Assembly (NCBI GenBank): GCA_965652295.1
Contig: CBFGTS010000001.1
Coordinates: forward strand, 64,001 to 128,000
Reading direction: 5' to 3'
Source: an uncultured Haloferula sp.
Lineage (GTDB): Bacteria; Verrucomicrobiota; Verrucomicrobiia; Verrucomicrobiales; Akkermansiaceae
DNA length: 64,000 nucleotides
Shown: piece by piece, positions 21,801-22,898 of the stretch
Layout: every line of letters starts with the position of its first letter
Position numbering within the stretch: the stretch's first letter is position 1
Notes under the pieces: generated by a model
What the model saw: only the letters and a program-made list of their open reading frames with translations
What the model was told of the DNA's origin: nothing
Databases searched by the model: none
Program-made: the position numbers and the translations under genes

Positions 21801-22508
21801 ATCGCGCTCACCGAGCGCGAGCACACGGCCGTTGCCATCGCCGAAAATCTGCACCTCGACGTGGCGTCCGCGTTCGATGAAACGTTCGACGAACACCCCG
21901 CCCGAGCCGAAACTGCGTTCGCTGAGCCGCACCACGCTTTCGAACTCGCGGCGCAGCTCCTCCGGATCGCGGCAGACCTTCATGCCGATTCCGCCGCCGC
22001 CCGCCGTGCTTTTGAGCATGACCGGGAACCCGATCTCCGCCGCCGCCGTGACCGCCGCTTCGGCGTTCTCCAACAAGTCTGTCCCCGGAACCAGTGGCAC
22101 GCCCGCTTCACCTGCCAGACGACGTGCCTCATGCTTCAGTCCGAAGGCGATGATCTGTTCCGGCGTCGGCCCAAGCCACTTCACGCCGGCTTCCTCGCAC
22201 ATCCGGGCGAAGTCGGTGTTTTCGCTGAGCAGACCGTATCCAGGGAAGACCGCGGCCGCACCGGCTTCGCGGGCGATCTCGATCAGACGGTCCTTGAGAA
22301 GATAACTCTCCGAAACCGGCCCCGGCCCGAGTCGATGGGACTCGTCTGCGAGATCGACGTGGGGTGAGGCGCTATCGGGATCCGAGTAGACCGCCACGGC
22401 CTCCATGCCGAGAGCGTGTATCGTGCGGATGGCCCGAGCGGCGATCTCGCCGCGGTTGGCGATGAGGATCTTCGATTTTCGATTGATGATTGACGATTGA
22501 GACATCAT
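18888..22508 (-). CDS. uca: Urea/guanidine carboxylase (biotin-dependent)
   Basis: Biotin carboxylase motifs (ILIANRGEIA, GGGGIGM, RDCSVQRRNQK, EVNTRLQVEH), carboxyltransferase motifs (HPSNLHDNAY, KYNPARTWTP, GPGGYQ) and the biotinyl motif EAMKME. Confidence 0.96.
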   Translation of the reverse strand: MMSQSSIINRKSKILIANRGEIAARAIRTIHALGMEAVAVYSDPDSASPHVDLADESHRLGPGPVSESYLLKDRLIEIAREAGAAAVFPGYGLLSENTDFARMCEEAGVKWLGPTPEQIIAFGLKHEARRLAGEAGVPLVPGTDLLENAEAAVTAAAEIGFPVMLKSTAGGGGIGMKVCRDPEELRREFESVVRLSERSFGSGGVFVERFIERGRHVEVQIFGDGNGRVLALGERDCSVQRRNQKVFEETPAPGLTDETRAALHAAAVQLGESVNYRSAGTVEFIYDADRSDFFFLEVNTRLQVEHGVTEMVTGVDLVEWMIRLALDPQWVMPGVVPAPQGCAIQARVYAEDPNQNFRPSAGLLTEADFPQWTRCDGWVRPGTKVSPFYDPLLCKVMVHADDRDSAVRKLTQALDESRISGIETNLRYLRQVVRWTPYITGGVAMRDMAGFDYRPRTIDVQSPGTMTTVQDFPGRTGYWEVGVPPCGPFDSLSFRLANRLVGNPEGAPALEITMTGPTLRFNTPVKVAVVGAAAKVTLNGEAVEGAFDVAAGDVVKVGRIEGAGMRCYLAVSGGIESPLYLGSASTFTLGRFGGPFGRALLPGDVLGIADWRLEMEDCGKEIPISNEWRIGVLYGPHGAPDFFTPEDIGTFFDTSWEVHYNSARTGVRLIGPKPKWARKDGGEAGLHPSNLHDNAYAIGAVDFTGDMPVILGPDGPSLGGFVCPCVVVEAELWKLGQLHPGDKITFVPVDESWAENQRQALDAYLSGTLDALPLPQPAILDLQSAILASFGEQDDAVVVRRAGDRYFLIEFGPHHLDLKLRFKVHVVYEWLKEKGIDGIVDLTPGIRSLQVHFDPRVIARDALWAIIDEGLRSLPPLAEIEVPTRIVHLPLSWDDPSTQEAIRKYMQSVRPDAPWCPSNLEFIRRINGLDSIDDVYRIFFDASYLVMGLGDVYLGAPVATPLDPRHRLVTTKYNPARTWTPENAVGIGGAYLCIYGMEGPGGYQFTGRTIPVWNRWRKTEDFSEPWLLRFFDQLRFYPVSAEELLRFREDVPLGRHKLKIEETVFRFADYERFLDDHAEEIDAFRTDQRRAFQEERERWEAAGLVMDAPVETEVVDEDELVIPHGCIALESPVTGSVWKVLAAAGGQLGAGKGVMILEAMKMEMPVETETSVEVIELLVAEGGSVRAGQVVAILRELPVEDLMIAD
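18889..18924. repeat. Heptamer array (CAATCNN on +) at the uca 3' end
   Basis: caatcgg caatcat caaatct ... caattcc. Confidence 0.7.
20151..20178. repeat. Heptamer array (GATTGNN on +) inside uca
   Basis: gattgcc gattgaa gatcgag gattgcc, translated as AILDLQSAI. Confidence 0.75.
20656..20690. repeat. Heptamer array (CAATCNN on +) inside uca
   Basis: caatctt ccatctc caatctc caatcgg caattcc, translated as GIADWRLEMEDC. Confidence 0.8.
22467..22501. repeat. Heptamer array (GATTGNN on +) in the uca 5' end
   Basis: gatcttc gattttc gattgat gattgac gattgag, translated as the N-terminal extension SQSSIINRKSKI. Confidence 0.85.
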
Positions 22509-22521
22509 GGCGCTTTGCGCG

Positions 22522-22866
22522 TTATTCAGAGTTCTTCTTTGATGCGACCATGATGGCGCAGATTTCGTCGGCTTCCTGCAGTAGCGGTTGGACTCGTTCG
22601 GCAGGCAGGAGTTCGGCTTCGATGATCATTTCCAGCCAATAGGCAGACTCGTCGGCTTCTTCGATCACGATCCCAAGCTTGGCTTGAAACTCGGCGGTGG
22701 ATTGTCCGCGACAGGCAGCACGATAGTTCGCTCCCACCGACGACCCGGAGCGAGCGAGTTGCATCGCGATGGTTTTTCCGACGTAGGACTTGGGCAATGC
22801 CTCGACCACGCGAAATGCCCGCAGCCCGAACTGCTTGGTCCGCTTCTTGAGTTCTTCCGGTGTCAT
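22522..22866 (-). CDS. Four-helix-bundle protein (TIGR02436 / 23S rRNA-IVP / bAvd-like fold)
   Basis: ELKKRTKQF...QLARSGSSVGANYRAACRGQSTAEFQAKLGIVIEEADESAYWLE family pattern. ATG at 22866. Confidence 0.9.
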   Translation of the reverse strand: MTPEELKKRTKQFGLRAFRVVEALPKSYVGKTIAMQLARSGSSVGANYRAACRGQSTAEFQAKLGIVIEEADESAYWLEMIIEAELLPAERVQPLLQEADEICAIMVASKKNSE

Positions 22867-22872
22867 GTCTTC

Positions 22873-22898
22873 CAATCGTCAATCTTCAATCGAAAATC
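22873..22898. repeat. Heptamer array (CAATCNN on +), inverted partner of 22474-22499
   Basis: caatcgt caatctt caatcga aaatc. Its reverse complement matches 22474-22499 at 25 of 26 nt. Confidence 0.88.

Follow-up and report, generated by a model that had tools for sequence, protein, structure and literature searches.

Why should a urea/guanidine-breakdown operon carry, between two of its genes, a small gene for a four-helix-bundle protein enclosed by a long inverted repeat? The locus lies in an uncultured Haloferula sp. (GCA_965652295.1, contig CBFGTS010000001.1, positions 64,001 to 128,000), in a 64,000-nucleotide stretch that we call the window and whose own coordinates are used throughout. 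On the minus strand the operon runs nikR-like regulator, UAAP1, UAAP2, the four-helix gene, urea carboxylase (uca) and allophanate hydrolase. We find that the ~430-bp segment between UAAP2 and uca is an optional insert between two genes of the operon. We propose, as the probable explanation, that it is a selfish cassette of the intervening sequence (IVS) type lodged on the UAAP2 stop codon, an optional passenger rather than a uca-specific switch.

A four-helix-bundle gene framed by inverted heptamer arrays

The cassette and its host genes comprise the following features.

22886..23518, minus strand: UAAP2 (urea amidolyase-associated protein; TIGR03424, DUF1989), the upstream host gene, from profiles
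22873..22898, minus strand: 5' arm on the mRNA, about four GATTnnn heptamers, the first 13 nt being the last codons and TGA of UAAP2, from the sequence and an inverted-repeat search
22865..22872, minus strand: 2-nt bulge and 6-nt inner stem extension covering the four-helix start codon, from the sequence and the fold (missing from the predicted folds of relatives G103 and G022)
22522..22866, minus strand: four-helix-bundle gene, 114 aa, TIGR02436 / PF05635, ATG at 22866, from profiles, structure model and Foldseek
22500..22508, minus strand: uca start codons ATG ATG TCT, in the loop and inner stem, from the sequence
22467..22499, minus strand: 3' arm on the mRNA, about five nnnAATC heptamers that encode an N-terminal extension of Uca; the segment pairing with the 5' arm is 22474-22499
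18888..22508, minus strand: urea carboxylase uca (TIGR02712), the downstream host gene, from a profile

A preliminary description of this DNA had reported a 25/26-nt inverted repeat around the four-helix gene, and we find the same: the arms at 22474-22499 and 22873-22898, 26 nt each and 373 nt apart, are 96% complementary with a single mismatch and rank first among the inverted repeats listed for 18000-28000. Likewise present in the sequence are the 2-nt bulge (22871-22872) and, beyond it, the agacat/atgtct pairing (22500-22505 with 22865-22870). What had gone unremarked is that the arms are tandem arrays of 7-nt units (GATTTTC GATTGAA GATTGAC GATTG). The final codons of UAAP2 and its TGA stop (22886-22888) lie within the upstream arm. 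At the other end uca starts at 22508 or 22505, the second AUG being the one within the inner stem, and in this genome (G000), G103, G022 and locus L348 the 3' arm is translated as ~8-11 residues ahead of the conserved ILIANRGE of Uca. An Rfam scan of 16000-27000 gave zero matches and thus no rRNA match around the cassette, whose flanks are UAAP2 and uca and not helix 9, 25 or 45 of an rRNA gene. A scan for promoters and terminators returned nothing at the cassette.

The enclosed protein is a member of both TIGR02436 (79 bits; cut-off 24) and PF05635 (56.2; cut-off 33.8), the latter to our knowledge a very large family without a function. Its structure model consists of four long helices (pLDDT 97), and Foldseek matches it to 2RLD (BT_0352; TM 0.89, E 8e-6), clearly also to 2GSC (Xcc0516), and weakly to Avd (TM 0.73-0.79, ~9% identity, E 0.1-0.2). 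By analogy with these three the protein is probably a pentameric ring, because 2RLD has five chains and because of how Xcc0516 is described in the available part of PMC4990558. A four-copy complex prediction, four being the limit of the tool, scored 0.48 against 0.37 for a control and is not used as evidence. Between G000 and G103 the open reading frame (ORF) has dN 0.095 and dS 1.29, rates that indicate purifying selection.

An optional insert at the UAAP2-uca junction

The cassette is present at a minority of orthologous junctions, is replaced at others by different armed elements, and has solo-arm and gene-less derivatives. We collected 129 UAAP2 loci, some of them near-duplicates, and could extend 118 to uca. 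The GATT-type four-helix cassette occupies 5 of these 118 junctions, always in sense orientation; a second four-helix subfamily occupies 13 (2 sense, 11 antisense), L350 being a further antisense copy. A gene with 9-mer arms is found at three more, identified as GxxExxY by TIGR04256 at L382 (1835-2375) and similar by eye at L401 and L324. Gene-less hairpins with a period of 8-10 also occur there, and the cargo family may set the arm period. In the comparison with empty-site genomes, proposed earlier as a check, most orthologous junctions are without the cassette. An inverted repeat is nonetheless present in 40 of the 73 junctions of at least 60 nt.

Several loci look like stages of gain or loss. 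For instance, L340 retains the 5' arm only, and its uca begins at the expected position of the four-helix ATG; G094 carries a decayed copy; L342, a minimal junction, has one complementary unit at each end and represents either a target site or a collapsed element. In G076, one full cassette is accompanied by seven gene-less copies with the same arms and inner flanks.

Hosts that are 96% identical hold cassettes in opposite orientation whose proteins are 61-65% identical, and the near-identical hosts L393 and L401 bear unrelated cassettes, which argues for replacement and not flipping. Similarly, the sense copy at L367 has 57-66% protein identity to nine antisense copies of the second subfamily, and the arm unit also differs. 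On a quick uca tree the GATT-cassette carriers do not form a single clade (approximately unbiased test, p 2.8e-129). In close pairs the ORF diverges about twice as fast as UAAP2, and between G103 and G089 it is less diverged than UAAP2 (dN 0.17 vs 0.24); these ratios suggest lateral transfer.

We made several further observations. Antisense four-helix genes, mostly with intact frames, are found at L316, L319, L350, L358, L362, L363, L365, L373, L375, L379, L393 and L396; in several of the antisense copies between UAAP2 and uca an arm provides the UAAP2 stop codon. At L360, L371 and L321 the junction holds a ~105-codon membrane-protein-like gene with a putative likeness to an SMR/Gdx guanidinium exporter. 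The gene-less elements of G076 (L290-L296) are ~200 nt long with AATC-first arms, and the full cassette there apparently lies in an ABC transporter operon.

Inverted arms across the protein family

To see how far this anatomy extends we examined the 80 best of 530 relatives in the genome collection, 130 stretches surrounding the first-listed among 444 TIGR02436 matches from 151 host-family genomes, and six local loci, giving 217 distinct ORFs, 214 with enough flank, in a sample biased to one clade and one host family. Inverted arms (match score of at least 12) flank 178 of the 214 family genes, compared with 3 of 208 shifted control flanks and 26 of 214 when arms were sought in direct orientation. 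Period 7 is found upstream of 150 of the 214 and of 4 in the controls. Both arms of a cassette have the same unit (160 loci resolved), most arms contain 4-5 units, and the units follow the protein tree, in which the GATT clade spans many phyla.

The arms have a preferred seat relative to host genes. Among the 142 cassettes having an upstream ORF, the outer arm end lies within 25 nt of the stop of that ORF in 130. Of 153 cassettes, 105 have the next start outside the 3' arm and 6 have it within the loop; it is ambiguous in 7 and could not be called in 35. Three of the six start-inside-loop cases are the UAAP2-uca junction here and its orthologues. Counts based on 153 or 151 cassettes left out L059 and L119, for which a nested hairpin had been picked, cassettes with fewer than three units per arm and, in the first G·U and unit-order analysis, duplicates. 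A same-strand upstream ORF was found at 200 of 208 loci by simple ORF calls, but 130 of those also had an antisense ORF, so this orientation survey discriminates poorly. The order of units within the two arms is matched at 0.826 family-wide against 0.803 in permutations (0 of 500 as high), a modest excess.

Heptamer arrays elsewhere in the genome and in related genomes

The genome has 57 A+T-rich arrays of period 7, compared with 1-13 at periods 5, 8, 10 and 11. All three of its TIGR02436 genes have inverted arms, with a different unit for each, and profiles of the three units find 83 arrays (84 before merging), which fall into three families, one for each four-helix gene; reversed sequence as a control gave 7 matches. 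The position of arrays relative to genes was judged with a purpose-made simple gene caller. G/T-rich arrays solely after a stop number 14, against 2 of the opposite sense, and A/C-rich arrays solely before a start number 12, against 0. Among unambiguous arrays the polarity, GATT-type after stops and AATC-type before starts, is therefore 26 to 2; of the remainder, 24 are ambiguous and 31 distant from gene ends. Several array pairs in G000 are gene-less hairpins that span from a stop to the next start.

This background bears on how special the arm pair is. The 5' arm matches 29 places in the genome, itself included, at 20 or more of 26 positions; its best match is its partner (25/26) and the best unrelated place reaches 24/26. 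The match is far beyond chance for random DNA, yet less special within this genome. Nevertheless, 96% of 200 unit permutations match less well than the actual unit order of this pair (p 0.04).

The urea/guanidine operon itself holds six heptamer arrays, the two arms and four others.

24239..24266, minus strand: solo GATT-type array between the nikR-like stop and the UAAP1 start
20654..20687, minus strand: in-frame GATT-type array in a variable uca loop, at about residues 606-618
20148..20176, minus strand: in-frame AATC-type array in a uca linker, at about residues 776-786
18880..18905, minus strand: GATT-type array at the junction of uca and allophanate hydrolase

The translated part of the last array (18888-18905) lengthens the Uca C-terminus relative to most relatives. 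In G007, G037 and G076 the arrays in the uca loops at 20654-20687 and 20148-20176 differ in orientation or unit, and G143 and G022 have palindromic repeats there. We considered the complementary arrays within uca as a second looped-out unit and rejected this, as G007 has both in one orientation and G076 and G037 only one. At the head of the operon, the NikR-like regulator (24268-24747) scores below all NikR cut-offs and is conserved in relatives.

The other two four-helix cassettes of the genome are at G000:C28:7315-7896 (L001), with AGTT units in a near-perfect arm pair of ~38-44 nt, and at G000:C7:152107-152631 (L002), with GATGG-type arms; by eye only, their flanking genes resemble ribonucleotide reductase and pheS/pheT. 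Gene-less heptamer hairpins at G000:C7:141940-142075 and 144775-144900 both lie within one long predicted coding sequence.

Across the host family, 18 of 23 genomes with a close relative of the protein have at least 10 GATT arrays, compared with 33 of 128 without; the median is 21 arrays per genome against 2 (within-genus permutation p 0.0015), counts that include the cassettes' own arms and overlapping matches. There are exceptions, as G092 has the protein and zero array matches and G021 has 181 array matches and zero TIGR02436 matches. The many GATTTAC arrays of G021 (L297-L304) are mostly unpaired and near gene ends.

A selfish passenger as the probable explanation

Based on these data, we propose that the passenger likely spreads sideways between orthologous sites and decays to gene-less hairpins and solo arrays. 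The insert would be tolerated because its arms normally run up to the upstream stop on one side and the downstream start on the other, closing the gap between the two so that folding of the transcript can loop the insert out. Here the 3' arm appears to have been absorbed into the first codons of uca, and the stem would form only in the absence of ribosomes. The protein may bind its own arms, keeping the period at 7; we infer this by analogy because most arms contain 4-5 units, relatives form five-chain rings, and Avd binds RNA with five protomers according to the available part of bioRxiv 10.1101/2023.10.23.563531.

A broader proposal can be made tentatively, as a possibility that we hold to be well short of probable: that there is a class of transposase-free mobile elements in which a ring protein reads its own periodic arms (7-mers for four-helix proteins, 9-mers for GxxExxY), targets stop/start junctions, and spreads both itself and gene-less hairpins, with the 23S rRNA IVS and the unexplained heptamer arrays of bacteria being the same element at other sites or stages of decay.

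Several points weigh against a selfish passenger. We found no transposase in the element and no evident target-site duplication or intermediate, but the ends of the element are blurred by their overlap with host codons. The patchy presence could reflect an ancient gain followed by many losses, with the flanks exchanged by homologous recombination. Abundant GATT arrays also occur in 33 of the 128 genomes where no close relative of the protein turned up. The ORF is conserved, which a host function would equally explain, and we know of no catalytic role for the four-helix protein. Covariation between protein residues and heptamer positions was null after multiple testing (best p ~2e-3 over ~110 columns and 7 unit positions); positions 25 and 52 came up repeatedly, and differing pairs were also more distant. 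Finally, G·U pairs show no family-wide excess over A·C pairs on the mRNA strand (109 vs 161; 190 vs 241 under symmetric scoring) and sense duplexes are not the more stable ones (57 vs 94 of 151), so the sequences do not support selection on an mRNA stem.

We know of no accepted origin for the heptamer arrays of bacteria. If the arms are binding sites of the protein, both that origin and the function of PF05635 become testable. The natural series at a single junction (empty, full, solo arm, antisense copy, different cargo) could inform how a cassette arrives and departs. As a uca-specific device the cassette is probably ordinary.

Alternative explanations

The alternative that survives best, although we think it unlikely, is a host regulatory network in which a domesticated RNA-binding four-helix protein reads arrays at starts and stops genome-wide, together with its own arms for autoregulation, and tunes the translation or decay of this operon. 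The three array families matching the three four-helix genes, their strict stop/start polarity, and the richness in GATT arrays of genomes with a close protein relative would fit such a network. The structural relative Avd binds an RNA stem-loop, and MacGregor made a similar proposal for TAACTGA repeats (PMC4679880, in the part available). However, the positions of arrays in the operon shift between close relatives, and both unit and orientation switch at the same uca loop. Arrays are also present without the protein, 31 of 83 are not near any gene end, the same junction carries intact antisense copies, and the per-genome counts take in the cassettes' own arms and overlapping matches.

The preliminary description had suggested a coupling switch for uca; in the form considered here, the stem hides the uca start until ribosomes that finish UAAP2 or start the four-helix gene melt the 5' arm. 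Folding the minus strand, as had been recommended, recovers the whole stem of ~31 pairs, inner extension included, in both the minimum free energy and the centroid structure (z -2.72; 1 of 100 shuffles as good); the same segment folded as DNA has z -3.34 and the opposite strand as RNA z -1.91. The proposed pairing of the four-helix and uca start codons stands in the predicted fold here and is missing from the folds of G103 and G022. The stem does cover the uca initiation region, whose mean unpaired probability rises from 0.29 to 0.42-0.47 with modelled ribosome footprints. Moreover, an in-frame AUG within the arm is kept in G000, G103, G022, L348 and the remnant in G094, and the five related copies at the junction lean opposite to the family, with 12 G·U against 4 A·C (p 0.08). 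Nevertheless, we consider the switch quite unlikely. In the ribosome model the uca AUGs themselves stay mostly paired in alternative folds (0.01-0.35 unpaired), so occupancy does not free them; the uca start of the G089 cassette is outside the arm; most orthologous operons have no cassette at all; and a start inside the loop is an unusual geometry, as the count of 6 in 153 attests. The predicted folds differ in register, the G000 5' arm pairing one unit further in than that of G103. Slippage and arm-to-arm copying, which we infer to lie behind this register, would explain the near-perfect match of the arms without any switch. Some translational coupling may arise as a side effect. We also considered a T4 gene 60-type bypass from UAAP2 to uca and rejected it, the matching GAT codon past the stem being out of the uca frame.

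Excision, which had also been suggested, is very improbable in a clean form, with RNase III releasing an RNA of ~400 nt and leaving both neighbors translatable. The genome encodes RNase III, the stem has ~31 pairs, RNase III cuts the stem of the Coxiella IVS of the same design (PMC4990558, in the part available), and cleavage that leads to decay of untranslated transcripts is possible. However, both uca AUGs are inside the loop, so that a cut in the stem would part the AUG from the body of uca; since the stretch from the 3' arm to the conserved ANRGE motif contains no AUG, GUG or UUG, translation of uca could not begin on the downstream fragment. Ribosomes would run through the outer ends of both arms, which are coding sequence, and there is no family-wide RNA-strand signature. 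RNase III cutting here would likely destroy the uca message and not release a clean cassette.

That the DNA between the arms is invertible and acts as a switch for uca or the four-helix gene is scarcely credible: the 26-bp inverted repeats and the occurrence of the second subfamily in both orientations here (2 sense, 11 antisense) would fit, but all five GATT-type copies are sense, the two orientations of the second subfamily have different proteins and arm units even between hosts 96% identical, and 0 of the genome's 5 tyrosine and 1 serine recombinase matches are on the contig of the cassette (C1). Nor was the inversion or deletion that we had been advised to look for seen in DNA contigs: those of two studies that span the 5' arm have the reference orientation, and none of the joints listed links the arms (there are 41 further joints, contigs lose rare variants, and the listed contigs leave the 3' arm unbridged). 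Inverted in silico, the segment leaves no start codon near uca and an open antisense frame with distant starts, an uninformative result.

Comparison with known systems

The likeness to an rRNA intervening sequence drawn in the preliminary description holds, through the same protein family, a terminal stem and tandem heptamers. In the 23S rRNA IVS of Coxiella burnetii, as described in the available part of PMC4990558, an S23p ORF is enclosed by a 28-bp terminal stem, tandem heptamers precede the start codon, and cleavage by RNase III falls within the stem. Like that IVS, the cassette has a PF05635/S23p ORF in an inverted-repeat loop (28 bp there, 26+6 here), heptamers immediately ahead of the start codon, a length of ~430 nt and a variable number of units. 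Unlike it, the cassette sits between two protein genes with arms that overlap host codons, its ORF is under purifying selection where decay is reported for Coxiella, and the excision shown there has as its counterpart here a predicted cut that would hit uca.

REPIN-RAYT systems, as far as the available part of PMC3116915 describes them, offer a second comparison. They too tie a gene to its own repeat type, with several systems per genome, and have dispersed gene-less inverted doublets (here in G000, and seven in G076) and singlet remnants. The cargo, however, is a four-helix protein without a known catalytic site and not a tyrosine (HUH) transposase, and the arms are periodic heptamer arrays that dock on stop and start codons, not palindromic REPs (repetitive extragenic palindromes). 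The enclosed gene is PF05635 only, with no RAYT within the cassette, to which that search was confined.

TAACTGA heptamer repeats occur in Beggiatoaceae, cyanobacteria and Bacteroidetes, and MacGregor proposed a regulatory network for them (PMC4679880, in the part available). They resemble the AATC-type arms in being short arrays of fixed orientation just upstream of starts. They differ in their unit, and the available part of PMC4679880 connects them neither with a four-helix gene nor with paired arms. Avd of diversity-generating retroelements, which binds an RNA stem-loop with all five protomers (bioRxiv 10.1101/2023.10.23.563531, in the part available), shares the four-helix pentamer fold. 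Unlike Avd systems, the cassette has no reverse transcriptase, template repeat or target gene nearby: the two RVT_1 matches of the genome are on C3 and C35, and 18000-28000 holds no long direct repeat pair.

Among top-ranked literature matches, a coverage that leaves out most subscription journals and supplements, we found none linking PF05635 genes in protein operons to heptamer arms, and the main text of a 2026 survey of non-coding elements is without the terms four-helix, heptam or S23. The cassette is IVS-like in anatomy and REPIN-RAYT-like in population structure, falls outside both, and is apparently a member of an undescribed class in operon form.

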